Assembly: GCA_951406725.2 (NCBI GenBank)
Contig: OX597814.1
Coordinates: forward strand, 60,946,001-61,010,000
From: Octopus vulgaris
Lineage: Eukaryota
Direction: 5' to 3'
Length of the DNA: 64,000 nucleotides
Position 1 is the first letter of the stretch; the number at the start of each line of letters is the position of its first letter. The position numbers and the translations under genes were made by a program. Under the pieces are notes generated by a model, which was given only the letters and a program-made list of their open reading frames with translations, ran no database searches and was not told the DNA's origin. Shown here in pieces: positions 15,031-50,944 of the stretch.

Positions 15031-16635
15031 ATAGAGCTGTGCAAGCCATGTACAGGGGTGCTTTCAGTAAGGTGAGGGTTGGCAATGAGTATAATGAAGA
15101 ATTCAGGGTACAAATAGGGGTTCACCAAGGATCAGTCCTCAGTCCCCTCTTGTTCATCATAATCCTCCAGGCAATAACAGAGCAGTTCAAGATAGGCTGC
15201 CCCTGGGAGCTCCTCTAGGCTGATGACTTTGCTCTTATAGCTGAATCACTACCAGAACTAGAGAAGTTTCAGGTGTGTAAGCAAGGTCTAGAATCAAAGG
15301 GCCTTAGAGTTAACCTAGCAAAAGCCAAAGTCTTAGTAAGTAGGAAAGCAAGCAAATCACAAATCCCTTCAGGTAGATGGCCTTGCTCAATCTGTAGAAA
15401 AGGCACAGGTAGAAACTTTATAAGATGTACTCACTGTAAGCTATGGACACATAAGAGGTGCAACAATATCAGAGGAAGGTTAACAGAGAAAATAGTTTTT
15501 GTGTGTGGAAGGTGCACAGGTATAATTAACACTAAAAATGTACAGAAGATAGATTCCATCACATGCCAACTAGAAGTAGTCGATAGCTTCCATTACCTAG
15601 GTGACCAGGTCAGTAGCAGGGGTGGATGCTCCAAGAACATTGCTGCTAGAATATGAATAGGCTGGGCAAAGCTCAGAGAGCTCCTACCTCTACTGGTAAC
15701 AAAGGGCCTCTCACTCAAAATGAAAGGCAGACTGTATGATATCTGTGTGCAAACTACCATGCTACACAGCAGTGAAACATGGGCTGTGAAAGCCAAGCAC
15801 ATGCACAGGCTTGTAAGAAATGAAGCTAGTATATTTCGCTGGATGTGTAATGTCAGTGTGCATGCACAGTAGAGTATAAGCATCCTGAAAGAAAAGGTGG
15901 GCATAAGAGGCATCAGATGTGGTGCACAAGGGAGATGACTGCACTGGTATGGTCATGTGATGTGTATGGACAAGGACAGCAGTGTGAAAAAGTGTCACAC
16001 TCTAATGGTGGGGGAGAACCTGTGGAAGAGGTAGACCCAAGAAGACATGGGACAAGGTGGTGGAGGACGATCTCCAAATGTTGGGCCTCACAGGCAATGA
16101 CAAGTGACCAAGGCCTTTGGCAATATGCCGTGCTTGCAAAGACCCATCAAGCCAAGTAAGATCGTGTTGCGTAACTGGCCTGTTAAAAGCACCCTTCAAA
16201 TGTTGGGCAATATGCTGTGCTTGTGAAGACCCATCAAGCGAAATGAAATCATAGTCATGGCCAGTGCCAGTGCTGTCTGACTGGCACCTGTGACAGTGGC
16301 ACATAAAAAGCACCATTCGAGTGTTGGGCCTCATGGAAACAGTAACAGGTGGGTGAGACCTTTGGCGATATACCATGCTGTGTAGACCTGTCAAAGCAAG
16401 TAAGACTATAGTTGTAGCCAATGTCAGTGTCAGGTCAATGGCACCTGTGGCAGTGGCATGTAAAAAACACCCACTACATTCTCAGAATGGTTGGTGTTAG
16501 GAAGGGCACCCAGCTGTTGAAACCTTTCCAAATCAGATTAGAACCTGATGCAGCTCTCCAGCTTACCAGTTTTCAGTCAAACCACCCAACCCATGCCAAC
16601 ATGGAAGACGGATGTTAAATGATGATGATGATGAT
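15031..16635 (+). mobile_element. 5'-truncated, decayed RTE LINE copy (3' half of RT, PHD insert, C-terminus and 3' UTR)
   Basis: It is homologous to 23228-24990. It retains GVHQGSVLSPLLF and the CSIC...CTHC...HKRC...CGRC finger. The YADD codons are mutated to TAG-GCT-GAT-GAC. It ends in (GAT)n. Confidence 0.9.
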
Positions 16636-23178: not shown

Positions 23179-23217
<39 letters not shown>

Positions 23218-23404
23218 GTGTATATATATCATCATCATCATCATCATCATCGTTTAACGTCCGCTTTCCATGCTAGCATGGGTTGGACGGTTCAACTGGG
23301 GTCTGGGAAGCCCGAAGGCTGCACCAGGCCAGTCAGATGTGGCAGTGTTTCTACAGCTGGATGCCCTTCCTAACGCCAACCACTCCGAGAGTGTAGTGGG
23401 TGAT

Positions 23405-23690
23405 TTTATGTGCCACCGACACAGGTGCCAGACGAGGCTGGCAGACGGCCACGCTCGGATGGTGTTTTTTATGTGCCACCGACACAGGTGCCAGACGAGG
23501 CTGGCAGACGGCCATGCTCGGATGGTGTTTTCTTATGTGTCACCGACACAGGTGCCAGACGAGGCTGGCGGATGGCCACGCTCGGATGGTGTTTGTTACG
23601 TGCCCTCAGCACGGAGGCCAGTCATTGCGGTACTGGCTACGGTCACGTTCGGATGGTTTTCTTATGTGCCACCGGCACTGGTACCACAAG
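23405..23690. repeat. About five ~63-67-bp tandem repeats in the RTE 3' UTR
   Basis: Units starting atgtgccaccgacacaggtgccagacgaggctggc... begin at ~23408, 23471 and 23535, with diverged units at ~23598 and 23665. Confidence 0.85.
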
Positions 23691-23854
23691 GATACAAATT
23701 CCATTGGTGTTCATCTATTTTGATTTGGTTCGATTTGATTCGATATGATTCGATTCTCACTTGCCTCAACAGGTCTTCACAAGTGTCACAAGAAGGAAGG
23801 TATGCACAGGTGGACTGACTACGTCCCAGGTAGGGGCCACGGATTATGGCTTCA

Positions 23855-26800
23855 CTAGTCTTGCCGGGTCTTCTCACGCACAGCATACTTCCATAGGTCT
23901 CGGTCTCTAGTCATTTCCATGGTGAGACCTAACGTCCGAAGGTCGTGCTTCACCACCTCGTCCCAGGTTTTCCTGGGTCTACCTCTTCCACGGGTTCCCT
24001 CAACTGCTAGGGATTGGCACTTTCTCACACACCTATCTTCATCCATTCTCGCCACATGACCATACCAGCGCAATCGTCTCTCTTGCACACAACAACTGAT
24101 GCTTCTTAGGTACAACATTTCTCTCAAGGTACTAACGCTCTGTCGAGTAAGTACACTGACATTACACATCCATCGGACCATACTGGCTTCGTTCCTCACG
24201 AGCTTACGCATGTCCTCAGCAGTCACGGCCCATGTTTCACTGCCATGTAGCATAGCTGTTCGTACACATGCATCATACAGTCTGCCTTTTACTCTGAGCG
24301 AGAGGCCTTTAGTCACCAGCAGAGGTAAGAGCTCCCTAAACTTTGCCCAGGCTATTCTTATTCTAGCAGTTACACTTTCAGCGCACCCACCCCCACTACT
24401 GACTTGGTCACCTAGATAGCGGAAGCTATCAACTACTTCTAGTTTTTCCCCCGGAAAGTGACAGAAGTTGTTTTCTGCAGATTTTCGGAGGTCAATGCTC
24501 CAGAGCACCTGCCACATACAAAAACTATCTTCCCAGTTAGCCTACCTTTGACATTGCTGCACCTCTTATGTGTCCATAGCTTACACTGGGTACATCTTAT
24601 AGAGTTTCTACCTACACCTTTTCTACAGATCGAGCAGGGCCATCTTCCTGAGGATAGTTGTGGGTTTTCTACCTTTCTACTTATTAGTACTTTGGTTTTA
24701 GCTAGGTTGACTCTAAGGCCCCTCGATTCTAAATCCTCCTTCCACACCTGGAACTTCTCCTCCAGTTCTGATAGTGACTCAGCGATTAGAGCGAGGTCGT
24801 CAGCATAGAGGAGCTCCCAGGGGCAACCTGTCTTGAATTCCTCCGTTATTGCCTGGAGGACTATGATAAATAGGAGGGGGCTGAGTACTGAACCCTGGTG
24901 GACCCCAACCTCTACTTTGAATTCTTCTGTGTACATGTTGCCAACTCTAACCTTACTTACGGCATCTCTGTACATGGCTTGCACAGCCCTCACCAGCCAT
25001 TCATCTATCCCTAGTTTCCTCATTGACCACCAGATGAGGGATCGGGGGACCCTATCAAAGGCTTTCTCCATGTCAACGAAAGCCAGGTACAGGGGCTTAT
25101 CCTTGGCTAGGTATTTCTCCTGCAGCTGCCTTACTAGGAATATAGCATCAGTGGTGCTTTTCCCTGGGACAAACCCAAACTGCATCTCATCTAAACTAAC
25201 TCTCTCTCTAATTAGTTGGGCTATGACCCTCTCCGTAACCTTCATTACCTGATCCAACAGCTTGATACCTCTGTAATTATTTGTATCCAGGGCATCACCT
25301 TTGCCTTTGTAGCAGTTGATTAGTATGCTGCTACACCAGTCATTGGGTATGACTCCTTCGTGTATCACCTGGTTGACTATACGGGTGACTAGGTTATAGC
25401 CGACACTGCCAGATATTTTGAGCATCTCTGCAGTAATTCCTGATGGGCCTGGGGCTTTCCCTGTCTTCATGCTTCTAATTGCCTTAGCTACCACGGAACT
25501 ATCAACTCGGATAGCTGGTCCCTCTGTTGGGTCAACATTTGGCAGACTCTCTTTATCCCATTCATTTTCTTTATTCAGCAAACTTTCATAGTGGCATCTC
25601 CAAACCTCTCTCTTTGCATCCTCATTTAGCGCAAGTGAACCATCATCCATGCGAACACACTTCTCTCCTACCACATCACGATTCTCTCTCACACACTGTC
25701 TTGCAACACGAAATACCTCAAGTGTTTCATCCTCACGGCTCAGAACATTGGCAAATTTTTTCTTATCCGCTTCCCCTCTGGCTAAATAAACCTGTCTCCT
25801 AGCTTCCCTTTTGGCTGTCTGATACAATTCCCTGCTACCACCGTTCTTCCAGTCCTTCCAAGCCTGTCTCTTTTGTCTAATAGCCCCGTCAACCACCGTG
25901 TTCCACCACCATGTAACTCTGGGTCGAGATGGTACTTTGCTCCATCCACAGATCTGGTCAGTGGCTGTCAGCAGATTGTCCCGTAGGAATCTCCAGTTGT
26001 CTTCCACATTAAGTGAAGCTATATCCCCTTCTATTTCGTCAGAGGCTTCGAGTAGTATGTCTCTAAATCTCTGTCCATTTGCAGGATCTTTAAGCTTCCA
26101 GACCCTTCTCCTCCAAGCTGGTCTTCTTCTGGGCAACCATTTAGCTCTGATCCTGAAGTCGCTAACTACTAATCTATGTTGGGGAGTACATTCTTCGCCT
26201 GGGAAGGTTTTGGCATTTATAATCAGCCCTCTTTCCCTTTTTCTGGCAAGGATGTAGTCAATCTGGCTGGTGTGTCTGCCAGAACGGTAGGTGACTAGGT
26301 GAGAGGTGGGTTTCCTGAAGTGGGTATTGCAGACCATAAGGTCATTTGCATCGCAGAACTCCAGCAGCCTGGTTCCCTCCTCATTTCGAGAGCCAAAACC
26401 GTGGCCTCCATGGATGCCATGGAAGCCCCTGACATGTCGTCCAACATGTCCATTGAAATCACCTGCCACGAAGAGAAGGTCACTGTCATTTGTCAATGAG
26501 GTAGTCCGCAATAGGGTGTCATAGAATTGGTCTTTTTGTCCTTCCGGTAGCCCTGGTTGAGGGGTATATGCCGAGATGATGGTAGCTGTCCTATGGTGAA
26601 GAACTAATCTAATTTTAATTACTCTGTCACTTACTCTGACTACCTCGATTACCTTACCTATCCATTTCTCCGCAAGAAGTATACCCACGCCCCCGACTCC
26701 GTCAATGTTCCCTGCCCAGAAAATCTTGTACCTGTGTTCCTTGCCCGTGAGGAGCCTAGCAGAACCTCCTCTCCACCTTACTTCCTGGATACAGCATACA

Positions 26801-26973
26801 TCCACACGTCTCCGTTCAAGCAGCTCTACAATCTCTCCAGACCTACCTTTCAATGTGCCAACGTTGAGCGTGCCAACTCTGAGGGTTTGGGAGGTGTGGG
26901 CATCAGAGACCCTGGGACGAGGGACAGCAGTGTCATGTACCTGAAAAGAAAGCTTGCATTTGGCAGATTTCAT
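23855..26973 (-). CDS. RTE LINE ORF: AP endonuclease + reverse transcriptase + PHD-finger insert, with one frameshift near 24450
   Basis: APE motifs: GTLNVGTL, IQEVRW, AGDFNGHVG, IDYIL, QHRLV. RT motifs: KAPGPSG, QFGFVPGKST, FVDMEKAFD, GVHQGSVLSP, LYADD, FRYLG. It has the RTE-type C-terminal RGRGRPRKTW. The 844-aa ORF continues into the downstream ORF after a shift in a G/A run. Confidence 0.93.
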
Positions 26974-27122
26974 ATGGAAACTCTAGACTACAACCTGCAT
27001 ACTTTTCACAATTTTGCGCTATATGTTCAGATAAGCCCTACATAGGTGCTAGTGGGGGAGGGGGTAGTTTCCGGTATTTGGGTAGAAACTTCCGGTATTG
27101 GGGGTGGGAGGGTGGGCGACAA

Positions 27123-27665
27123 AATCGAAGCAACTAGTTTGAATACTATATTTGAGGGGGAAAAATAATTAATTAGATAAATGACTGAATGAAAGCCAGA
27201 GAGAGAATGAAAATAGATAAATAATAAAAAATACGGTAGAGAATGGAAATAGATAAATAATGAAAAAAAAAAAAAAAATACGGTAAGAGACGAGGGGGCA
27301 TATTTCGGAGGAGAATGGGATAAACATCGAAGAATGGCACTGAAGGAAAATAAACTTTAAAAATGCAATGCATGAAGTCGCCATGTTTAGAGAATAGAGG
27401 AACGAAGGGAGAACAGATCAAGCTATCCAAACAAAACGCTTAAAAATATGAAAAGAGCAGGATGAGATTGACTTAGCTGGCCATTTTTGGAAGTCTGTGT
27501 TTTCTCTGAAGGTGTAGCGAGTGAATAGGGATCAGATACGATCGCTCGCTGGCTTTTATAAGGGTATTAGGGAGGGGGACGGAAACACATTGGGAGGGGG
27601 ACGGAAACACGAGAGAGAAGAAAGAGAGAAGAGAGAGAGAGAGAAACAATTAAGGAGGGACGGAA

Positions 27666-27695
<30 letters not shown>
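27123..27695 (-). repeat. Tandem ~573-bp monomer, copy 1 (uninterrupted, empty Tx1 target at 27514-27530)
   Basis: The unit starting aatcgaagcaactagtttgaatac recurs at 27696 and 38801. It contains (GA)n, repeated gacggaaac motifs and TATAAAAG on the minus strand. Confidence 0.9.
27554..27560 (-). promoter_or_regulatory. TATA box of the monomer (second copy at 38739-38745)
   Basis: It is a consensus TATAAAAG with a CT-rich upstream region and a pyrimidine-rich, Inr-like CCCTATTCACT starting 30 nt downstream. It is conserved in both monomers. Confidence 0.6.
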
Positions 27696-27696
<1 letters not shown>

Positions 27697-28144
27697 ATCG
27701 AAGCAACTAGTTTGAATACTATATTTGAGGGGGAAAAATAATTAATTAGATAAATGACTGAATGAAAGCCAGAGAGAGAATGAAAATAGATAAATAATAA
27801 AAAATACGGTAGAGAATGGAAATAGATAAATAATGAAAAAAATACGGTAGAGAATGAAAATAGATAAATAATGAAAAAAAAAAAAAAAAAATACGGTAAG
27901 AGACGAGGGGGCATATTTTCGGAGGAGAATGGGATAAACATCGAAGAATGGCACTGAAGGAAAATAAACTTTAAAAATGCAATGCATGAAGTCGCCATGT
28001 TTAGAGAATAGAGGAACGAAGGGAGAACAGATCAAGCTATCCAAACAAAACGCTTAAAAATATGAAAAGAGCAGGATGAGATTGACTTAGCTGGCCATTT
28101 TTGGAAGTCTGTGTTTTCTCTGAAGGTGTAGCGAGTGAATAGGG
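27696..28144 (-). repeat. Monomer copy 2, downstream part (interrupted by the Tx1 elements, resumes at 38699)
   Basis: It is nearly identical to 27123-27530, with one extra internal ~38-bp subrepeat, and ends at the target GTAGCGAGTGAATAGGG (28128-28144). Confidence 0.9.
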
Positions 28145-28351
28145 TATTTCTTTATTATGATTATAAAAATCGATTACACAGAAGGACAAATACAGGACAT
28201 ATATACAAAAAAAACATTTAAGAGATTCGATTAAAAATTTTCATTTACATTGGGATTATTCATTATAACATAAATGTCCTTTACATAACCCGTATAACAA
28301 ACATCAGTACATGAACTTATAATCTCACTGGAGTTTTTACACCCCGGCAAT

Positions 28352-31300
28352 TTATGAGGCCCTGCAGCTTTTATTTCCTCTCCTTCCTCCATGGTCAAGC
28401 TGGGTTTCTGACACCCACCTTTTTTCCACTTCCTTCCATCTTTTCTCATACACACCCCGCGGTAAGATCCTCTTTTCCAGCCCCATTTTGCTCTTCAGAT
28501 GATATCTGAAGTAAGTGAGCAAGCCGGGGCCGGAGACAAAGGATCCTATCGCGGCTCCTTCCATTCTCGTTCTCCACATACATTCTTTTACTACTGCAAC
28601 CGTGCAGTGGAAACATGCCTCACCTTCCTTCGAGAGTCCAGTTGGCGGTATCATCTTAATCATAGACTCAGCCGACAGCTGTACTCGTCCCAGATGCGAT
28701 AACACGTGTTCTGCGTAACTTATCAAGTCGGACAACTTCCGACAGTGAACAAAAGCGTGCTGGACGGTTTCATCGTCCAACTCGCACCTTGGACACGTCG
28801 GTGGCACTGAAACTCCGTGCCGCGATAACTTCTCGCGAACAGGTAAAGCATTCCTATAGCACTGCCAGGCCAGGGATCTTTGGAAATTATCCAAATACCC
28901 CGACCTGAAAGTTTTTTTAAACAGGTTGGTAAGCTGGTCTTCGTCAAACCCCAGAGCCCCTCCTAGGACGTCGTCGTTTTTTAACTCTACCAGCTTTCTA
29001 TAAAATACCGAGGTGGTATTTCCGCAGCCGGCCTTGCCCGCCTTGTGGATCAGCGTGAGTGCCTGTCGGCACTCCTTTTGCCATGGAGTCAGTTTCCATC
29101 TTTTGATGTAACCGGGTTTAAAATTCACTAAGGAGGCCGGTCTCGGGAAAAATCCCCCTGCCAGCGGACTCCACACCTTATCACCCTCCAGGTGGTGCCA
29201 GAGATGCCTTAGCCTCAACGCATGTCTGCGCATCATCAACCAAGGCATTCCTAACCCACCCTTTAACGGTTCCTGGCAGCAAACGGAGCGCCTCACAAGT
29301 GGCCTTCCTCCTTTCCACAAAAAGCGGAAAAGGATTCGCTCCAACTTGTTAAGCCATGAATCGGGGCAGGGGACAACGGTCAGGTGGTAGGTGATTACAG
29401 ATGCAATGAACATCTGCACCACCTCCGCCTTTCCTTTCAAGGACAGAAACCTTCCGGACCAGGTCCGTACTATGGCTTCCACCTTGCTTGTCACCTCACT
29501 CCAGTTCTTCTCCGTTTGGGAGTCTGGCCCAAACCAAACTCCCAGCAACTTAACAGGGCCATCCGTCCAGTGTCCCACGACACTGGACGATATCGACTTG
29601 CTCCTCCAGGTGCCGAGGCGCAAGCCAACCGATTTGTCCTTGTTAACCTTTGCTCCTGCCACCGCCTCGTATCCTCTGATAGCCTCCTCTACACAAGGTA
29701 GTTGGGCCTCTTTGGACACGATGAGGGTGACGTCATCCGCATAAGCAGTAACCGTCCTCCCACCTCCGATTTCATCCGAGTTACTCCCCAGCCTCTCCAA
29801 CCTTCGCAGCAATGGCTCAAGAGCCAATACGTACAAAAGTGGTGACAAGGGGCACCCCTGACGCACTGAACACTCGATCGAAAACGGTTCCGTTAGGTAA
29901 CCGTTTATCTGGACGGTGGACTTGATGCCGCTATACATAGCGGAGATCCACCCGCGAAATTCAGGGCCCAGCCCAGCCGCTTCGAGGACCGTCGCCAGGT
30001 ACCCATGGTCTACCCTATCGAAGGCTTTACTTTGGTCTAAATGGACCATTACCCCGCCTTTGCCGGCTAATTTACCCACCCTATCTAAGGTGTAGCGTAT
30101 AAGGTGAAGGTTGTCCTGGATCGACCTGCCTGGAATTGCACATGTCTGTGCTCTCCCTACAAGTTTCTCCACGACAACCGTCAACCTTTTTGCCAACACC
30201 TTGGCCAAAATCTTTAACTCTACATTAAGTAGAGTTATGGGCCTGTAGTTACTGATGTTATCCCCCTTGCTCGGGTCTTTCTGGATTAGCGTCACCACTC
30301 CCCGGCTTACAGAACTGGGAATTCTCCCATTCTGCTGCCAGTTCGTGTAGACGCCCGCCAGTATTTCCCCGAACAAGTCCGGCATACTTTGGTAAAACTC
30401 GTAGGGCAGACCATCCAACCCCGGCGACTTCTCCCCGGCGCATCCGGCCAGTATCTCCTTTATCTCCGCGGGAGTGATCGCTCCTTCACAGCACTCCACC
30501 TCACGCCCCGCGGGCCGCGGTCCGCCGGCTAGGAAGTCCTTTAAGGCTCTCCCCCGATCCAGCGGACCACCACCCCCGAACACGCGGGCGAAATGCTGGT
30601 GAAGAAACTTTTGCATCTCCTCCTGTCCATAGATCTTTTGTCCCTGTTCGTCAGTCAAAGATTTGATTGAGGCTCTGTTGCCTCTCTGACTCTCCACACG
30701 ACGGGCCCATCCGGCCACGTTAATACCTTCTCGTTTCCCAGCGCGCAGCTTAGCTCTGACTCTGCAACCTTCGTGTTTGGAGTTAAGGTGACGGTACAAT
30801 ACCGTCCTTGCCGCCAACACTCCGGATGCAGAGCCAGCTTCCATTGCCTTGTCTAGATTCTTAACTAAATCGCCCTCTAGACTAGCCCTATCTATCCTTA
30901 GCTGATTGCTAAATCTAACGGACTCTAAACGAATGGCTCTTTTGAGGGCGTGCCACCATCTATTGTTAATGATGGTGCCTCACAATGCCCTCTGAACTAA
31001 CACCTTAATCCGGGTACGGAAGTCTTCACAATTCAAAATAGCCTTGTTCAGCTTCCAGTACCCGGGTCCCTGTCTATGACACTTGTCTAATTGCATCTCA
31101 CACGTCACAAATTTGTGATCCGAGTAAGGTACAATATGAAATTGTGGACAACTAAACGTATCCTTATCTCTTTTCTTAATAATTATCCTATCTAGATACG
31201 ATCTGTGTGAGCCGTCGTTGTTACTCCACGTCCACTGTGGAACGCTCGGCTCATCCAGTCGGTAACGGTCCACTAGATCAAAGCTCTCTAGTAGACCCTT

Positions 31301-31784
31301 GAGGCTAGGGTTCCCCTTCTTATTGGTTGAGCCAACATTGTCGATGTGCGCTTCAAGGACAGTGTTAAAGTCCCCTACTAGGATTACTGTTTTCGACGTC
31401 GCTAAAAAGGGGCTCCAGGTTCCGAAAAAGACCAGTGTGTCTACCCTCGTTCGGGGCGTAGACAGCTACCAACCTGAAGGACTGTTTACTTACGTGAGTC
31501 ACATCCAGGACAACCAGCCTGCCTTCTGGGTCCAGAAAGACAGTACTTACCTGCAAGTCCAAGCTCTTCCTGATGAAGACTGCCACGCCTCTGCCTCCTC
31601 CTCGGCTAGGAGAAATAAATTTCTCGAAACCATTTAGAAGAGGCAAGAACGCTTGGGTCTCGCTCATCTTGGACTCGGTTGCAATAGCAATATCTACACC
31701 ATGTGTCGTGAGGTCGTTCAGGAAACAAATTTGTTTCCGTTTCGACCCCATTCCACGTACATTTATACAACCCAGCTTAGCCAT
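28352..31784 (-). pseudogene. Tx1 ORF2 copy A (APE endonuclease, RT, C-terminal CCHC), interrupted by a +1 frameshift near 31410 and a TGA at 30980
   Basis: APE motifs: GCINVRG, ATES, VYAPN, GDFN, YLDRI, SDH. RT motifs: GYWKLN, KSPGLDGLP, LDQSKAFDRVDH, VRQGCPLSPLLY, AYADD. Zinc motif: CPRC-x8-H-x4-C. Confidence 0.9.
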
Positions 31785-31812
31785 TGTAGGTTAGAGAGAA
31801 AAATAAATGTAC

Positions 31813-33231
31813 TTACGGTTGGGAAAGGGAGCATGACAGTTTAAATCTGCCTGCTTCCCCTTCTTCCGCTGCTGCAGGGCTCTTGACCGGCGTTGCCACT
31901 GGGCTCTGGGTGGGTGTGGTTGCCGGGGTTATTATCAGTTTGCCCTCCATTACCTCTTTGGTTACGTCTCTTATCAGTCGGCTCCTCAGATGCTCCTGAA
32001 GAACCTCCTCTCTCCACTCGTCCTCCCCCACCTTCGCGAAGCGAGCGGTCGCCTTCACGTCTGTGGCTCTACTAAACAATGCAAATCTTGAGAATTTGCA
32101 ACAATTGTACACTCTTTCGTTGTTCTCGTCGAAAGCTATGATCCTCTCGTTCTTCTGTAAACACTTTTTTATGTCTTGTTTTATGGGGAGGGGCTTGGCA
32201 AACTGTTTTCCAATGAAAACAGTGCCATGGGGGTAGGGTTGGGGGATTTGCTTGGTGTGTGTGTCTGCTGTGTTTGCTGTTTTTTTCTTTGTTTGGGGAG
32301 GGGAGTCCTGGGTATTATCCTTTTTTCTTTTATGAGTGACTTGTGTGTAGTCCATTGGTTCTGTATGGTCCGTTTTTGTTTCCGTATTCGTCTTTTTGTT
32401 GTCTTTTCCTGTTTTCTCCCCTTCAGTGTTGGGGACACTTTGGGGAGGCGCTTCTTCTGTTCTCTTCTTTTTTATACAATTTGATCGGACGTGACCCTTC
32501 TCTCCACACTTGAAGCATCTGGGTCTACGTCCCTCTACCGAAACTCTCATGGACGTACCGTCCTCATTGAAGATTCTATCTGGCAGGTTTTCAAGGATTT
32601 TGTTCTCCGCCTGCACGAGGAGTTCTAGGGTCTGACCCTTCCACCGCACCACCTCTTTCCTTCTCATCTGCAGTATCGATATTTCTCGTTCAATGTTGTG
32701 CAGGACCGCCGCTGCTACCCACATGATGTCGTACCCTCTGGGTATGTCTTCTACCAGTAACTTCGCTGTACACTTCCCCATGTACGAGGGTAGCAGCATG
32801 ATGTCGTCGTTTTTTAGGGTCAACGACGACACCTCTCTCGCTACCTCGGCTGTGTCGAAATGTGCCTCGACTGTAGCACTGTGTGCACCTCTAACGACAT
32901 GACGAATTTTGTCCCACACCGGGGACAGGCACTTTTCTACCATTTCATTCTTTACATCCATTATCTTCTTTTCTTTAAAGCTGTATACCTTGTAGATAAC
33001 TATTCTTTCTTTAATTTCTTGTACCTTTGCCTGCGGCGGTACAAGCCTTATCTCGCCTCCTTCCACTTTTACTAGGTTCCTGAATTCATACAATTGTTCG
33101 ATTTTAAACTCGACATCCATCATGGCGCCGCCCACCGCGGCCGAGAATGACTGTTTGGGTACTTCCTTTTCCATATTTTCACTTTTTCCCATCACGGGAA
33201 AATCCTTCTTCGACGTCAAGTCGAAATCCAT
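31813..33231 (-). CDS. Tx1 ORF1 copy A (gag-like nucleic-acid-binding protein, ~472 aa from the first ATG)
   Basis: The ORF is intact from MDFDLTSKK and contains the zinc knuckle CFKCGEKGHVRSNC and a basic, low-complexity C-terminal half. Confidence 0.88.
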   Translation of the reverse strand: MDFDLTSKKDFPVMGKSENMEKEVPKQSFSAAVGGAMMDVEFKIEQLYEFRNLVKVEGGEIRLVPPQAKVQEIKERIVIYKVYSFKEKKIMDVKNEMVEKCLSPVWDKIRHVVRGAHSATVEAHFDTAEVAREVSSLTLKNDDIMLLPSYMGKCTAKLLVEDIPRGYDIMWVAAAVLHNIEREISILQMRRKEVVRWKGQTLELLVQAENKILENLPDRIFNEDGTSMRVSVEGRRPRCFKCGEKGHVRSNCIKKKRTEEAPPQSVPNTEGEKTGKDNKKTNTETKTDHTEPMDYTQVTHKRKKDNTQDSPPQTKKKTANTADTHTKQIPQPYPHGTVFIGKQFAKPLPIKQDIKKCLQKNERIIAFDENNERVYNCCKFSRFALFSRATDVKATARFAKVGEDEWREEVLQEHLRSRLIRDVTKEVMEGKLIITPATTPTQSPVATPVKSPAAAEEGEAGRFKLSCSLSQP

Positions 33232-33516
33232 TACCTCGAAGGTAATAAAAACGCAGGTAATACAAAATTTTCTGCCCCGTAGGGCGAAAATTACCGTTAT
33301 ACAACGGGCACTGTTCAAAACAGTTAGCACAAACAATAATAGTACAAATCCGAACTCTCTTAAATGAAGGCAGCAATTTTCTCACAACGCAGATGAACAG
33401 TAACTCGAGAACAGTAGCGAGTGAATAGGGTATTTCTTTATTATGATTATAAAAATCGATTACACAGAAGGACAAATACAGGACATATATACAAAAAAAA
33501 CATTTAAGAGATTCGA

Positions 33517-36500
33517 TTAAAAATTTTCATTTACATTGGGATTATTCATTATAACATAAATGTCCTTTACATAACCCGTATAACAAACATCAGTACATGA
33601 ACTTATAATCTCACTGGAGTTTTTACACCCCGGCAATTTATGAGGCCCTGCAGCTTTTATTTCCTCTCCTTCCTCCATGGTCAAGCTGGGTTTCTGACAC
33701 CCACCTTTTTTTCCACTTCCTTCCATCTTTTTCTCATACACACCCCGCGGTAAGATCCTCTTTTCCAGCCCCATTTTGCTCTTCAGATGATATCTGAAGT
33801 AAGTGAGCAAGCCGGGGCCGGAGACAAAGGATCCTATCGCGGCTCCTTCCATTCTCGTTCTCCACATACATTCTTTTACTACTGCAACCGTGCAGTGGAA
33901 ACATGCCTCACCTTCCTTCGAGAGTCCAGTTGGCGGTATCATCTTACTCATAGACTCAGCCGACAGCTGTACTCGTCCCAGATGCGATAACACGTGTTCT
34001 GCGTAACTTATCAAGTCGGACAACTTCCGACAGTGAACAAAAGCGTGCTGGACGGTTTCATCGTCCAACTCGCACCTTGGACACGTCGGTGGCACTGAAA
34101 CTCCGTGCCGCGATAACTTCTCGCGAACAGGTAAAGCATTCCTATAGCACTGCCAGGCCAGGGATCTTTGGAAATTATCCAAATACCCCGACCTGAAAGT
34201 TTTTTTAAACAGGTTGGCAAGCTGGTCTTCGTCAAACCCCAGAGCCCCTCCTAGGACGTCGTCGTTTTTTAACTCTACCAGCTTTCTATAAAATACCGAG
34301 GTGGTATTTCCGCAGCCGGCCTTGCCCGCCTTGTGGATCAGCGTGAGTGCCTGTCGGCACTCCTTTTGCCATGGAGTCAGTTTCCATCTTTTGATGTAAC
34401 CGGGTTTAAAATTCACTAAGGAGGCCGGTCTCGGGAAAAATCCCCCTGCCAGCGGACTCCACACCTTATCACCCTCCAGGTGGTGCCAGAGATGCCTTAG
34501 CCTCAACGCATGTCTGCGCATCATCAACCAAGGCATTCCTAACCCACCCTTTAACGGTTCCTGGCAGCAAACGGAGCGCCTCACAAGTGGCCTTCCTCCT
34601 TTCCACAAAAAGCGGAAAAGGATTCGCTCCAACTTGTTAAGCCATGAATCGGGGCAGGGGACAACGGTCAGGTGGTAGGTGATTACAGATGCAATGAACA
34701 TCTGCACCACCTCCGCCTTTCCTTTCAAGGACAGAAACCTTCCGGACCAGGTCCGTACTATGGCTTCCACCTTGCTTGTCACCTCACTCCAGTTCTTCTC
34801 CGTTTGGGAGTCTGGCCCAAACCAAACTCCCAGCAACTTAACAGGGCCATCCGTCCAGTGTCCCACGACACTGGACGATATCGACTTGCTCCTCCAGGTG
34901 CCGAGGCACAAGCCAACCGATTTGTCCTTGTTAACCTTTGCTCCTGCCACCGCCTCGTATCCTCTGATAGCCTCCTCTACACAAGGTAGTTGGGCCTCTT
35001 TGGACACGATGAGGGTGACGTCATCCGCATAAGCAGTAACCGTCCTCCCACCTCCGATTTCATCCGAGTTACTCCCCAGCCTCTCCAACCTTCGCAGCAA
35101 TGGCTCAAGAGCCAATACGTACAAAAGTGGTGACAAGGGGCACCCCTGACGCACTGAACACTCGATCGAAAACGGTTCCGTTAGGTAACCATTTATCTGG
35201 ACGGTGGACTTGATGCCGCTATACATAGCGGAGATCCACCCGCGAAATTCAGGGCCCAGCCCAGCCGCTTCGAGGACCGTCGCCAGGTACCCATGGTCTA
35301 CCCTATCGAAGGCTTTACTTTGGTCTAAATGGACCATTACCCCGCCTTTGCCGGCTAATTTACCCACCCTATCTAAGGTGTAGCGTATAAGGTGAAGGTT
35401 GTCCTGGATCGACCTGCCTGGAATTGCACATGTCTGTGCTCTCCCTACAAGTTTCTCCACGACAACCGTCAACCTTTTTGCCAACACCTTGGCCAAAATC
35501 TTTAACTCTACATTAAGTAGAGTTATGGGCCAGTAGTTACTGATGTTATCCCCCTTGCTCGGGTCTTTCTGGATTAGCGTCACCACTCCCCGGCTTACAG
35601 AACTGGGAATTCTCCCATTCTGCTGCCAGTTCGTGTAGACGCCCGCCAGTATTCCCCCGAACAAGTCCGGCATACTTTGGTAAAACTCGTAGGGCAGACC
35701 ATCCAACCCCGGCGACTTCTCCCCGGCGCATCCGGCCAGTATCTCCTTTATCTCCGCGGGAGTGATCGCTCCTTCACAGCACTCCACCTCACGCCCCGCG
35801 AGCCGCGGTCCGCCGGCTAGGAAGTCCTTTAAGGCTCTCCCCCAATCCAGCGGACCACCACCCCCGAACACGCGGGCGAAATGCTGGTGAAGAAACTTTT
35901 GCATCTCCTCCTGTCCATAGATCTTTTGTCCCTGTTCGTCAGTCAAAGATTTGATTGAGGCTCTGTTGCCTCTCTGACTCTCCACACGACGGGCCCATCC
36001 GGCCACGTTAATACCTTCTCGTTTCCCAGCGCGCAGCTTAGCTCTGACTCTGCAACCTTCGTGTTTGGAGTTAAGGTGACGGTACAATACCGTCCTTGCC
36101 GCCAACACTCCGGATGCAGAGCCAGCTTCCATTGCCTCGTCTAGATTCTTAACTAAATCGCCCTCTAGACTAGCCCTATCTATCCTTAGCTGATTGCTAA
36201 ATCTAACGGACTCTAAACGAATGGCTCTTTTGAGGGCGTGCCACCATCTATTGTTAATGATGGTGCCACACAATGCCCTCTGAACTAACACCTTAATCCG
36301 GGTACGGAAGTCTTCACAATTCAAAATAGCCTTGTTCAGCTTCCAGTACCCGGGTCCCTGTCTATGACACTTGTCTAATTGCATCTCACACGTCACAAAT
36401 TTGTGATCCGAGTAAGGTACAATATGAAATTGTGGACAACTAAACGTATCCTTATCTCTTTTCTTAATAAATATCCTATCTAGATACGATCTGTGTGAGC

Positions 36501-37070
36501 CGTCGTTGTTACTCCACGTCCACTGTGGAACGCTCGGCTCATCCAGTCGGTAACGGTCCACTAGATCAAAGCTCTCTAGTAGACCCTTGAGGCTAGGGTT
36601 CCCCTTCCTATTGGTTGAGCCAACATTGTCGATGTGCGCTTCAAGGACAGTGTTAAAGTCCCCTACTAGGATTACTGTTTTCGACGTCGCTAAAAAGGGC
36701 TCCAGGTTCCGAAAAAACCCGTCTGTCTACCCTCGTTCGGGGCGTAGACAGCTACCAACCTGAAGGACTGTTTACTTACGTGAGTCACATCCAGGACAAC
36801 CAGCCTGCCTTCTGGGTCCAGAAAGACAGTACTTACCTGCAAGTCCAAGCTCTTCCTGATGAAGACTGCCACGCCTCTGCCTCCTCCTCGGCTAGGAGAA
36901 ATAAATTTCTCGAAACCATTTAGAAGAGGCGAGAACGCTTGGGTCTCGCTCATCTTGGACTCGGTTGCAATAGCAATATCTACACCATGTGTCGTGAGGT
37001 CGTTCAGGAAACAAATTTGTTTCCGTTTCGACCCCATTCCACGTACATTTATACAACCCAGCTTAGCCAT
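33517..37070 (-). CDS. Tx1 ORF2 copy B (APE-RT-CCHC), with homopolymer frameshifts near 36715 and near the C-terminus (~33710-33730)
   Basis: It comprises a 126-aa N-terminal piece and a 1014-aa open frame with the same motifs as copy A, and it lacks the nonsense codon. Confidence 0.88.
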
Positions 37071-37098
37071 TGTAGGTTAGAGAGAAAAATAAATGTAC

Positions 37099-38516
37099 TT
37101 ACGGTTGGGAAAGGGAGCATGACAGTTTAAATCTGCCTGCTTCCCCTTCTTCCGCTGCTGCAGGGCTCTTGACCGGCGTTGCCACTGGGCTCTGGGTGGG
37201 TGTGGTTGCCGGGGTTATTATCAGTTTGCCCTCCATTACCTCTTTGGTTACGTCTCTTATCAGTCGGCTCCTCAGATGCTCCTGAAGAACCTCCTCTCTC
37301 CACTCGTCCTCCCCCACCTTCGCGAAGCGAGCGGTCGCCTTCACGTCTGTGGCTCTACTAAACAATGCAAATCTTGAGAATTTGCAACAATTGTACACTC
37401 TTTCGTTGTTCTCGTCGAAAGCTATGATCCTCTCGTTCTTCTGTAAACACTTTTTTATGTCTTGTTTTATGGGGAGGGGCTTGGCAAACTGTTTTCCAAT
37501 GAAAACAGTGCCATGGGGGTAGGGTTGGGGGATTTGCTTGGTGTGTGTGTCTGCTGTGTTTGCTGTTTTTTTCTTTGTTTGGGGAGGGGAGTTCTGGGTA
37601 TTATCCTTTTTTCTTTTATGAGTGACTTGTGTGTAGTCCATTGGTTCTGTATGGTCCGTTTTTGTTTCCGTATTCGTCTTTTTGTTGTCTTTTCCTGTTT
37701 TCTCCCCTTCAGTGTTGGGGACACTTTGGGGAGGCGCTTCTTCTGTTCTCTTCTTTTTATACAATTTGATCGGACGTGACCCTTCTCTCCACACTTGAAG
37801 CATCTGGGTCTACGTCCCTCTACCGAAACTCTCATGGACGTACCGTCCTCATTGAAGATTCTATCTGGCAGGTTTTCAAGGATTTTGTTCTCCGCCTGCA
37901 CGAGGAGTTCTAGGGTCTGACCCTTCCACCGCACCACCTCTTTCCTTCTCATCTGCAGTATCGATATTTCTCGTTCAATGTTGTGCAGGACCGCCGCTGC
38001 TACCCACATGATGTCGTACCCTCTGGGTATGTCTTCTACCAGTAACTTCGCTGTACGCTTCCCCATGTACGAGGGTAGCAGCATGATGTCGTCGTTTTTT
38101 AGGGTCAACGACGACACCTCTCTCGCTACCTCGGCTGTGTCGAAATGTGCCTCGACTGTAGCACAGCGTGCACCTCTAACGACATGACGAATTTTGTCCC
38201 ACACCGGGGACAGGCACTTTTCTACCATTTCATTCTTTACATCCATTATCTTCTTTTCTTTAAAGCTGTATACCTTGTAGATAACTATTCTTTCTTTAAT
38301 TTCTTGTACCTTTGCCTGCGGCGGTACAAGCCTTATCTCGCCTCCTTCCACTTTTACTAGGTTCCTGAATTCATACAATTGTTCGATTTTAAACTCGACA
38401 TCCATCATGGCGCCGCCCACCGCGGCCGAGAATGACTGTTTGGGTACTTCCTTTTCCATATTTTCACTTTTTCCCATCACGGGAAAATCCTTCTTCGACG
38501 TCAAGTCGAAATCCAT
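37099..38516 (-). CDS. Tx1 ORF1 copy B, with a 1-bp homopolymer frameshift near 37755
   Basis: It encodes essentially the copy A ORF1 protein, split just after the CCHC knuckle where an A-run is one base shorter. Confidence 0.85.
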
Positions 38517-38698
38517 TACCTCGAAGGTAATAAAAACGCAGGTAATACAAAATTTTCTGCCCCGTAGGGCGAAAATTACCGTTATACAACGGGCACTGTT
38601 CAAAACAGTTAGCACAAACAATAATAGTACAAATCCGAACTCTCTTAAATGAAGGCAGCAATTTTCTCACAACGCAGATGAACAGTAACTCGAGAACA

Positions 38699-38770
38699 GT
38701 AGCGAGTGAATAGGGATCAGATACGATCGCTCGCTGGCTTTTATAAGGGAATTAGGGAGGGAGACGGAAA

Positions 38771-38801
<31 letters not shown>

Positions 38802-38860
38802 ATCGAAGCAACTAGTTTGAATACTATATTTGAGGGGGAAAAATAATTAATTAGATAATT
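38699..38860 (-). repeat. Upstream part of monomer 2 (target, TATA, (CT)n) plus ~60 bp of a truncated third monomer
   Basis: It matches 27514-27695 and then 27123-27180, and ends against a (TA)n tract. Confidence 0.88.
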
Positions 38861-38880
38861 ATATGTATATATATATATAT

Positions 38881-39334
38881 ATCGTTGCAGAACGACCTGC
38901 TGTGCTTACCTTGCATCGTAGGGTGACCTGCTGTGCTTGAGCAGACCTATTGAGTCAAGTACATCAACATCGAAATATATGCCAAATGGAAATTGTAGTT
39001 GTGATACCTGTGCCGGTGGCACGTAAAAAGCACCATCCGAACGTGGCCAATGCCAGCGCCGCCTTGACTGGCTTCTGTGCCAGTGGCACGTAAAAAGCAT
39101 CAACAGATCATGGCCACTGCCAGTCTGCCCTGGCACCTGTGCCGGTGGCACGTAAAAAGCATCCACTACACTCATGGAGTGGTTGGCGTTCGGAAGAGCA
39201 TCCAGCTGTAGAAACACTGCCAGATCAGACTGGTGCCTGGTGCAGCCTCCTGGCTTCACAGACCCCGGTCGAACCATCCAACCCGTGCTAGCATGGAAAA
39301 CGGACATTAAACAATGATGATGATGATGATGATA
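38881..39334 (+). mobile_element. RTE 3'-UTR-only copy with a (GAT)n tail
   Basis: It contains repeated cctgtgccggtggcacgtaaaaagca units and the conserved 3' terminal segment. Confidence 0.8.
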
Positions 39335-40174
39335 TCAAAAGCTGTGGAAGAGAGAGACCTAGCAAGAGATGGGATGAAGTTTTGATGCTGAACTTTACGA
39401 AGATGACAGAAGATCAAGATATGCAGCACATTGCTCTACTTGAGAATACCAGCCCACCACAACAGAATCGAGATCCTAAAGCCAAGGTGCCATGTAAAAA
39501 GCACTGGTGTTGGTAGCACTTAAAAAAGTATCTGTGATGATGCCACATAAAAAAACACCCATTACACTCTGTGTAACGGTTGGTGTTAGGAAGGGCAACC
39601 AGCTGTAGAAACCAAGCCAAAGCAAATTATGGAATTTAGTGTGGCCCTTAGCCTTACCAATTGCTATCAAGTCATCCAACCCATCAGAAATGGACATTAA
39701 ATGATAGGATGATGATTAATATTTGTTTTTATATTCAAAACAATTTTACATTAATCTGATGGGATACTCTATACTTTTGTAGAGTACAAATTTATTATTC
39801 TTGCCCAAGAATGTTGTTGACTGTAATTTCAAAGTCTTGGCCAGCTAATCCATCATCAAATATATATATATTATAGTGAGAATTTACAAAAAAAACAAAA
39901 GACAAAGACAGGTGTGTAAACAATAAACAGATGTTTTAGTTTAATGCTCAGGAAGTGAAAAAGTCTTTTACGTTTCAAGCCTATGCCCTTCAACAGAACG
40001 GAACGCAGAAATAAACAGGGAGAGAAAATAATAAAGGTTTAGTGGCTAGCGATCTATAATGGCGAATGATTATATATACGCAGCTGTATGTTCTTGTTGT
40101 TGTTTATGTTGTTTTGCAAAACATTATTTCATTCAGAATCATTCTCTGTTTCTCATTATGTTACTATTGCAGTA

Positions 40175-46457: not shown

Positions 46458-47075
46458 GCTCCTAATCACTTGGTTCACTTTTGTGCATGAGCAACATGAG
46501 AAGTATCTGTACATGTTGAGTAGAATAAATATCATATGTTATTTTTGTTTGATGCACCAGTTTATCAGCAATTTTCTCTCAGATGTCTATATCTTTCATC
46601 GATATATCGTTCATTGATATGCACATGTTGCTAGTGACACGATATGAACTAGCAACCGTTTTCTCTTAATGTCTGGCTTTCTACTTAGCTAGCTGAAACC
46701 TCTACCAATGTCTATAATGAAGTGTGATTGACTCACCCACCTCTATCCTCCTCCATACTCTCTCTTGCTCCTAATCACTTGGTTCACTTTTGTGCATGAG
46801 CAACATGAGAAGTATCTGTACATGTTGAGTAGAATAAATATCATATGTTATTTTTGTTTGATGCACCAGTTTATCAGCAATTTTCTCTCAGATGTCTATA
46901 TCTTTCATCGATATATCGTTCATTGATATGCACATGTTGCTAGTGACACGATATGAACTAGCAACCGTTTTCTCTTAATGTCTGGCTTTCTACTTAGCTA
47001 GCTGAAACCTCTACCAATGTCTATAATGAAGTGTGATTGACTCACCCACCTCTATCCTCCTCCATACTCTCTCTT
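46458..47075. repeat. Tandem duplication of a 309-bp unique-looking unit
   Basis: 46458-46766 is repeated at 46767-47075 with no differences I could see. Confidence 0.92.
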
Positions 47076-47199
47076 GAAGTGAAGTTTATTGTCAATTGAG
47101 AATAGCAGTTTGAGGAATTCCTGCATTGATGCAGTGAGTCGCTAAGTCAGATGATTTGCAACAGTTGTTTGGGAAGAAATCTTTGGGGTATTTAACCAG

Positions 47200-50242: not shown

Positions 50243-50931
50243 CCCCCGCAAGCCGGGACAAGGCACCTGAAGACATATGCTTCTGAGTGTATTGCTCATC
50301 GTCAGTCCAGGGTAGCCTGCCTCGCTCGCTGAGATGACCACAACCTCTCTGCAAATATATCATATTATCAGTAAAATTTATGAGCAATACACTCAGAAAC
50401 ATATGTCTTCAGGTGCCTTGTCCCAGCTTGCGGGGGTGATTGCCTCCCCTTTGCAAATATAAGGACACAGAAAGTGTGTCAAAGCCAACAGGAGACGTCG
50501 ATGTTTCCTAGGGCTAAATGGTGGTGGTGTAATTCCCTTACGGGACTGTCACATTGAGTTGACAGTATACGACCACTATATCACTCCACCACCGCTTATG
50601 TCTCTCTGAGACATTTAGAAATTCAATATTTCTAATTTCGGTGATCAGTAAATAAATTTTACTGATAATATGATATATTTGCAGAGAGGTTGCAGTCATC
50701 TCAGTGAGCGAGGCAGGCTACCCTGAACTGACGATGAGCAATACACTCAGAAACATATGTCTTCAGGTGCCTTGTTCCAGCTTGCGGGAGTGATTGCTTC
50801 CTCTTTGCAAATATAAGGACACACAAAATGTGTTAAAACCGACAGGAGACAGCGATGTTTCCTAGGGCTAAATGGCGGTGGTGTAATTCCCTTACGGGAC
50901 TGTCACATTGAGTTGACAGTATACGACCACT
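50242..50931. mobile_element. Penelope-like element terminal repeats (inverted plus direct pLTR arrangement)
   Basis: 50242-50380 is the reverse complement of ~50652-50790, and 50380-50580 is a direct repeat of ~50734-50931. It is flanked by (TA)n and contains hammerhead motifs. Confidence 0.8.
50722..50767 (+). ncRNA. Minimal type I hammerhead ribozyme
   Basis: Stem I CCTGAA/TTCAGG, core CTGACGA, stem II TGAG-caataca-CTCA, GAAA, palindromic stem III A-CATATG-T, and cleavage triplet GTC (cut after 50761). Confidence 0.82.
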
Positions 50932-50944
50932 ATATATATATATA

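Follow-up and report, generated by a model that had tools for sequence, protein, structure and literature searches.

Two copies of a young L1-group (Tx1-like) LINE lie in tandem and in sense orientation behind the TATA box of a repeat that is likely the promoter monomer of another LINE, in the 64,000-nt stretch of Octopus vulgaris DNA analyzed here (contig OX597814.1, positions 60,946,001 to 61,010,000; hereafter the window). Judging from sequence, we see the chances as evenly balanced that the inserted element seeks start sites rather than any one fixed target and would borrow the promoter on which it lands. We advance more tentatively, as a possibility we would not yet favor, that the LINE is guided by the RNA polymerase II (Pol II) pre-initiation complex, nicking at active TATA starts of many unrelated sequences, landing in sense, taking over the promoter and priming from a CC match of its own read-through trailer; if true, this would make it a Pol II LINE counterpart of Ty3 that here also parasitizes the promoter monomers of another LINE. 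The evidence for TATA spacing comes from one site. Papers are cited by PMC number, each for the part of its text that was available.

Targeting by APE-type LINEs is usually explained by an endonuclease that reads DNA sequence. A family that switches between unrelated sequences while keeping a constant start-site position would, if real, represent targeting by promoter architecture and a route for Tx1 elements to change targets. Such an element would also rewire or silence active promoters, here those of another LINE, and a sense-oriented, start-site-seeking integrator would be of interest to gene-insertion work. L1-Tx1 elements have been recently active in O. vulgaris, with 13 families and 421 insertions (PMC13282606).

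Target monomer and inserted elements

In the direction of transcription, the features of the locus are as follows.

38716..38858, minus: upstream partial monomer with 58-nt block, (CT)n, GTTTCCG motif and TATA box, after an (AT)n tract
38738..38745, minus: TATA box TATAAAAG upstream of copy A, first T 30 nt ahead of the duplication
38699..38715, minus: 17-nt target-site duplication, 5' copy, containing the predicted start (inferred from PMC1779604)
33431..38698, minus: LINE copy A, 5,268 nt (from ORFs and Pfam)
33437..33442, minus: AATAAA of copy A, whose first base lies 12 nt from the element end, with TGTA-rich sequence upstream
33414..33430, minus: 17-nt repeat separating tandem copies A and B, supported by X3 record 20
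28145..33413, minus: LINE copy B, 5,269 nt, ORF2 interrupted
28151..28156, minus: AATAAA of copy B
28128..28144, minus: 17-nt duplication, 3' copy
27531..28127, minus: rest of the 614-nt monomer, with body, 38-nt internal repeats, (CT)n and three GTTTCCG motifs
27514..27530, minus: empty target site in the next monomer
27123..27513, minus: last, partial monomer, joined to the unique leader of the RTE-type LINE
26974..27122, minus: unique 5' leader of the RTE-type LINE
23855..26973, minus: single-ORF LINE with endonuclease, RT and a weak PHD-like finger, read in two overlapping frames
23228..23854, minus: 3' UTR of the single-ORF LINE, ending in (GAT)n, then an (AT)n tract

From 38858 to 23228 the block that received the insertions keeps one orientation throughout, is bounded by (AT)n tracts and has a (GAT)n end, and by eye its flanks have a low-complexity (AT)n-CATATA stretch in common. 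We take the single-ORF LINE at 26973-23855 to be of RTE type from its anatomy rather than from a tree: it has a single EN-RT ORF, a microsatellite tail and attached monomers, the attachment being seen in one bridging contig of a diverged copy (X1 record 1, which joins monomer to leader at 27123 over 95 and 106 letters). In X2, the sequence at 27123 runs on into the next monomer instead. Microsatellite 3' ends are common in RTE elements (PMC9115989). From these sequence features, the 614-nt unit is likely the 5' tandem promoter monomer of the RTE-type LINE. A second TATA box lies at 27553-27560 on the minus strand, in the rest of the 614-nt monomer, and an X2 contig spans this promoter (27340-27588), which we do not take as evidence on transcription.

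Other identities for the target were tried and rejected. It had no Rfam match as a known RNA gene (one chance match, E 3.1), no strong hairpin on the sense strand as a microRNA cluster (best, -14.9 kcal per 100 nt), and none of its three sense frames contained a histone ORF. The junction 20-mer was absent from viral contigs. The two monomer promoters differ in their number of GTTTCCG motifs, and the copy number of the 38-nt internal repeat (27775-27880) differs between the two monomer units. After the RT of the RTE-type ORF, at 24439-24700 on the minus strand, lies a PHD-like cysteine finger with a Pfam E value of 0.0006, below the cut-off. Elsewhere in the window, 15036-16635 on the plus strand holds the 3' part of an older member of this RTE-type family, 78% alike and with the same 3' module after it; 46458-47076 contains a perfect two-copy tandem duplication of 309 nt, and 50245-50935 a short segment in inverted and direct copies about 94% alike.

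Copy A of the inserted LINE has a 182-nt 5' UTR (39% GC, with no TATA word), a frameshifted ORF1 from 38516 with a zf-CCHC domain, and an ORF2 (37070-33517) encoding an APE endonuclease, an RT and zf-RVT, with a frame break within the endonuclease part. In copy B, ORF1 is open over 472 aa (33231-31813). The Pfam domains of ORF2 (Exo_endo_phos, RVT_1 and zf-RVT) are those of an L1-group or Tx1-type ORF2, and ORF1 is separate and carries a zf-CCHC knuckle in both copies, which is a Tx1-type feature. The Atlas look-alikes of ORF1 are CCHC and ZCCHC3-like proteins (scores, 0.89-0.92), and the best solved relative of ORF2 is human L1 ORF2p (E 1e-56), with R2 at 2e-23. Among 120 listed of 1,292 matches, the nearest named relative is from Argonauta hians, at 55% identity; no named Tx1 reference appears among those 120 or in the 8 clusters looked up. 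On this sequence evidence the element is L1-group; the Tx1 label was given in an earlier sequence-only reading of this DNA and fits the anatomy.

The ORF1 stop (37102-37068 region, minus strand, and likewise in copy B) overlaps a donor-like GTAAGT word, past which a pyrimidine tract and a CTAAC stand just ahead of the ORF2 ATG, with no AG acceptor between. Among more distant relatives, another mollusc, Patella caerulea, has 27 near-identical ORF2 sequences (15 of them listed: P0111, P0134-P0147) at 29% identity to the LINE, and the neighboring locus tags of many suggest a tandem array. The 80 metagenome relatives of the LINE are also distant (25-41% identity). Of 34 selected for the length of their matches, 11 have a repeat of at least 12 nt on both sides of the match and none has a TATA word within 40 nt upstream, a comparison that is uninformative. 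A distant LINE relative (31%) at L003 48-5947 is flanked by a 29-nt direct repeat 5.9 kb apart, again with no TATA word within 40 nt upstream.

Geometry at the TATA box and the predicted transcript

The first T of TATAAAAG lies at 38745 and again at 27560 on the minus strand, and the 17-nt repeat CCCTATTCACTCGCTAC begins exactly 30 nt past it at both places (38715 and 27530), a spacing that the earlier sequence-only reading had reported and that we confirmed. All four occurrences of the repeat in the window are on the minus strand: before copy A (38715), between copies A and B (33430), after copy B (28144) and in the empty monomer (27530). The same reading had also described sense orientation and identical, tailless junctions; indeed, the ORFs of both copies run in the promoter direction, and both element ends read AATAAAGAAATA, fused straight to the repeat without an A tail. 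The identical junctions are not independent, though, as the copies share one site and are sisters, having a window letter in common at 9 of 13 checked positions where public contigs differ, so that the window provides one observation rather than two. If CC belongs to the element end, the boundary between element and target would be ambiguous by 2 nt.

How often such spacing arises by chance was counted on both strands of the window with 23200-38900 left out, which gave 96,478 positions. TATAWAAR precedes 38 of these at -30/-31 and 133 at -28 to -34; the looser TATAWAWR precedes 1,689, a number raised by (TA)n tracts. At CC sites the background for TATAWAAR is about 0.3%. In the 614-nt unit itself, 7 of 1,228 stranded positions fall in the -28 to -34 range. 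The rarity of the arrangement makes a 30-nt spacing unlikely to be chance, but this is one site, and the count followed its discovery.

One alternative is that a single insertion was later duplicated in place between the 17-nt repeats, or that the tandem comes from a template jump between two RNAs or an assembly error; in any of these cases it would be uninformative on targeting. The sister relationship of the copies agrees with this, as do the nearly identical bodies of the two monomers and the fact that four of the five indels between copies A and B fall in homopolymer runs. Against it, there are also 19 substitutions between the copies, and the window's tandem junction recurs in X3 record 20 with 0 differences over 109 letters. 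Such an event would account for the tandem and not for the position of the first insertion, and we consider it improbable.

The sequence-only reading went on to predict a transcript beginning with the 17 target nucleotides. Mouse TATA promoters carry the box between -32 and -29, with -31 and -30 best, and usually start on a pyrimidine-purine pair; if none is closer, the spacing extends to -33/-34 (PMC1779604). At distances 29 to 33 from this TATA box the pairs are AT, TC, CC, CC and CT, none of them pyrimidine-purine, and the first such pair is the TA at 34 nt, placing a predicted start at A38711, inside the 17-nt duplication. By these mammalian rules, applied to octopus, A38711 fits the extended-spacing pattern of PMC1779604. 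A start there would leave a leader of perhaps 13 nt instead of 17. The TCT initiator is another known start motif, and the start may alternatively be a C of that type at 30-32 (C38715-C38713). Since either predicted start falls in the duplication and upstream of the LINE, promoter capture is geometrically sound, and from sequence we regard it as plausible. A Pol II start just ahead of the LINE is likely, though not necessarily at the first base of the repeat.

Cleavage usually follows AATAAA by 10-30 nt, and with the signal of copy A 12 nt from the element end, cleavage would be expected past that end, inside the target repeat, where the first CA lies 15 nt after AATAAA. The last 210 nt of the element contain seven TGTA words against 1.8 in shuffles (P=0.0026). 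The earlier proposal that the poly(A) signal would cut off read-through into downstream sequence is right about a credible signal (AATAAA with TGTA), but the predicted cleavage lies in the target. The intact second TATA monomer (27560) also separates the insertions from the RTE ORF, which leaves the downstream element a way to escape silencing.

Close relatives in other flanks

Contigs of four public runs (X3, X7, X13 and X2) were aligned on the tandem junction, 33330-33520, and the junctions discussed here come from 23 of 28 loose-end rows and 32 of 116 pieces. Rows inside the UTRs and two 5'-side loose rows (X7 33397 and X2 33391) were excluded as uninterpretable, and 3' junctions of the window type align over only about 47 letters, so that some may be missed. 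Rather than a single conserved target, these contigs place close relatives of the LINE in at least five other flanks.

At the 3' junction, the eight loose-end rows listed represent four flank types. Five rows, covering three of the four types, go straight on with CC and no A tail, and three of the loose types among the rows listed have an ATA-CC junction in common; one type (three of the eight rows, from three runs) has a run of five A's and no CC. One CC flank begins CCTCTTC, an exact TCT-initiator match. With the window flank and one flank read from alignment gaps included, five of six listed types start with CC, a pair that begins 3.7% of positions. Initiator-like words are common after CC (38% of CC positions), so their presence at the other targets is weak evidence (P about 0.03-0.07). 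X3 record 22, which has no differences, and X13 records 5-7 pass through the CC and then stop or diverge there.

Among the listed 5' junctions that could be interpreted, four of five show other target sequence, and none of these four contains the 17-mer. The window's own promoter-repeat-LINE junction is found in X2 record 11, with 0 differences over 69 letters and, in addition, 18 promoter letters with one change. Two other targets have both ends visible (the X3 33397 and 33429 rows, and X7 33411 with 33424), and these ends match one another and not the 17-mer; one such duplication is 14-16 nt long. Among the listed contigs, spacers range from about 14 to 27 nt, partly as read from alignment gaps, and by such gaps three X13 tandem-junction contigs differ from the window spacer by about -2, 0 and +10 letters. 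A comparison of junctions across copies, with variable A tails and duplication lengths named in advance as telling against promoter capture, came out divided: duplication length does vary (about 14-27 nt), an A run is present in one of the four listed flank types, and the others are tailless.

These flanks bear on a reading in which the element is an R2-like specialist of one monomer whose RNA has the 17-mer at each end and depends on it for homing. The four exact copies of the 17-mer and the precise junctions in the window would suit such an element, as would occupation of the same site in both X2 and X3, and target-derived leaders do give uniform 5' junctions in R2 (PMC3774820). Against it stand the absence of the 17-mer from four of the five interpretable 5' junctions listed, which does not fit the earlier idea of an R2-like RNA with a 17-nt address, and run X2, which by itself has copies with 0-1 differences over 52-69 letters in three different flanks, two of them other than the window's and each of these with 1 difference. 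We give this reading little credence, although within the monomer family a bias of this kind may exist. Several flanks sharing mostly just CC, together with varying spacers, indicate that the 17-mer is a duplication made from the target and not a fixed RNA address. Two short motifs from the other targets had no real match in the window. Some of the other flanks belong to slightly diverged subfamilies, each of which could have its own sequence-specific enzyme.

The tandem-junction contigs, three of X13 and X3 record 20, carry 28, 21, 21 and 14 letters of the LINE 3' end, below the 31-letter threshold, so tandems in these runs are suggested and not proven. Stacking at one site is seen in the window and suggested with as many as three further spacers. 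Upstream of the other duplications at most 10 letters are visible, and TATA spacing is known for the window site alone.

A different explanation is an ordinary sequence-preferring Tx1 element that recognizes a short CC, pyrimidine-rich word in several repeat families and has an internal promoter, the TATA spacing being due to chance or later selection; in that case the octopus LINE would be a further Tx1 family whose target, the 5' monomer of a LINE, is unusual. Tx1 families often target other transposons, tandem copies around the target-site duplication are known for SINEU-3 (PMC4494074), and Tx1L nicks its own site in vitro (PMC1950540). The single site that supplies the TATA evidence and the frequency of initiator-like words after CC also favor it. 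A two-letter consensus, however, does not explain stacking at one site, the combination of spacing and orientation is rare by chance, and a 182-nt 5' UTR with no TATA word and 39% GC is weak evidence against an internal promoter. On balance we think this explanation unlikely, though well worth keeping in view.

Proposed mechanism and comparison with known systems

In the start-site-seeking reading, an upstream determinant, either promoter DNA or bound initiation factors, would direct the endonuclease to the start site, where it would nick the bottom strand no more than 2 nt away. As this determinant would survive insertion, later copies would pile up at the same position. We infer such a determinant upstream of the nick from the stacking itself, which a two-letter word is too short to direct. 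The captured promoter would then make an RNA with a 13-17-nt target leader, and cleavage after AATAAA, past the element end, would add a short target trailer beginning with CC, followed by poly(A). Pairing of the trailer CC with the GG 3' end of the nicked strand would prime reverse transcription inside the RNA; poly(A) would then not be copied, a match of 2-3 nt would be enough at a new target, and unrelated targets would have just CC in common. A second cut about 14-27 nt downstream would produce the target-specific duplication. What this retains of the original promoter-capture idea is a sense insertion behind a likely Pol II start, and what it gives up are the fixed 17-nt address and the need for a start exactly at the first base of the repeat.

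In the literature covered, no LINE is described as targeting Pol II TATA starts (most subscription papers, Repbase entries and supplements, which could cover the family, lay outside), and within the same limits on subscription papers and Repbase none is described as targeting the monomers of a LINE. The available parts of two octopus papers (PMC9115989 and PMC13282606) make no mention of start-site targeting, and in that of PMC4494074, its supplementary figures S3-S5 being outside our scope, we found no LINE target or start-site rule. Known Tx1 targets are DNA transposons, LTR elements, U2 genes and microsatellites (PMC4494074, PMC4640811). Tx1 LINEs that target transposons, such as Tx1L in Tx1D and the crocodilian Tx1-Mar, Tx1-8_Crp, Tx1-4_AMi and Tx1-9_AMi, resemble the octopus LINE in being APE-type and in occupying a fixed place within another mobile element; SINEU-3 likewise forms tandem copies around its target-site duplication, and transcription from the flank has been proposed for SINEU as it is here (PMC4494074). 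Unlike the listed Tx1 families, the octopus LINE occupies the TATA start region of a LINE monomer and has relatives in several unrelated flanks. The endonuclease of Xenopus Tx1L is sequence-specific on naked DNA (PMC1950540). No tether is thus needed in the best-studied relative.

R2 is transcribed by Pol I, whereas the leader of the octopus LINE is predicted to come from a Pol II start. The two are alike in that R2 in 28S rDNA is cotranscribed from its target and a target-derived leader could give precise 5' junctions (PMC3774820). The nuclease of R2 is restriction-like, its single target is fixed and its 5' end is cut by a ribozyme; the octopus LINE is APE-type, with varied targets, and an Rfam search of 26500-40000 at E<=1 matched no family and showed no 5' ribozyme, although a diverged one could be missed. 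The RNA of R1Bm must include target sequence from downstream, and a 3-nt AGG can prime SART1. Both R1Bm and SART1Bm resemble the proposed step in priming from a short stretch of RNA paired with the nicked strand, but each has one fixed target (28S rDNA and the telomere repeat, respectively), and a poly(A) tail is retained in SART1 (PMC7265360).

Keno, of the Tx1 clade, lies inside Pol II-transcribed multicopy U2 snRNA genes, and a Utopia family is reported to show occasional tandem insertion, like the octopus tandem; Keno and Utopia differ in having one conserved sequence target with a snRNA-type promoter and not a TATA start (PMC4640811). Ty3 and Tj1 use an integrase in place of target-primed reverse transcription, insert at Pol III genes and upstream of the start, and have their own LTR promoter, all unlike the octopus LINE (PMC4600332). 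A set distance and orientation to a promoter element, which in an element of the Ty3 or Tj1 type would have to recur across unrelated targets, is seen at one octopus target, the others having at most 10 upstream letters visible. Ty3 is positioned via TBP and Brf1, and Tj1 is always in sense (PMC4600332). What the start-site-seeking LINE would have in common with both is integration placed at the transcription starts of unrelated genes (PMC4600332).
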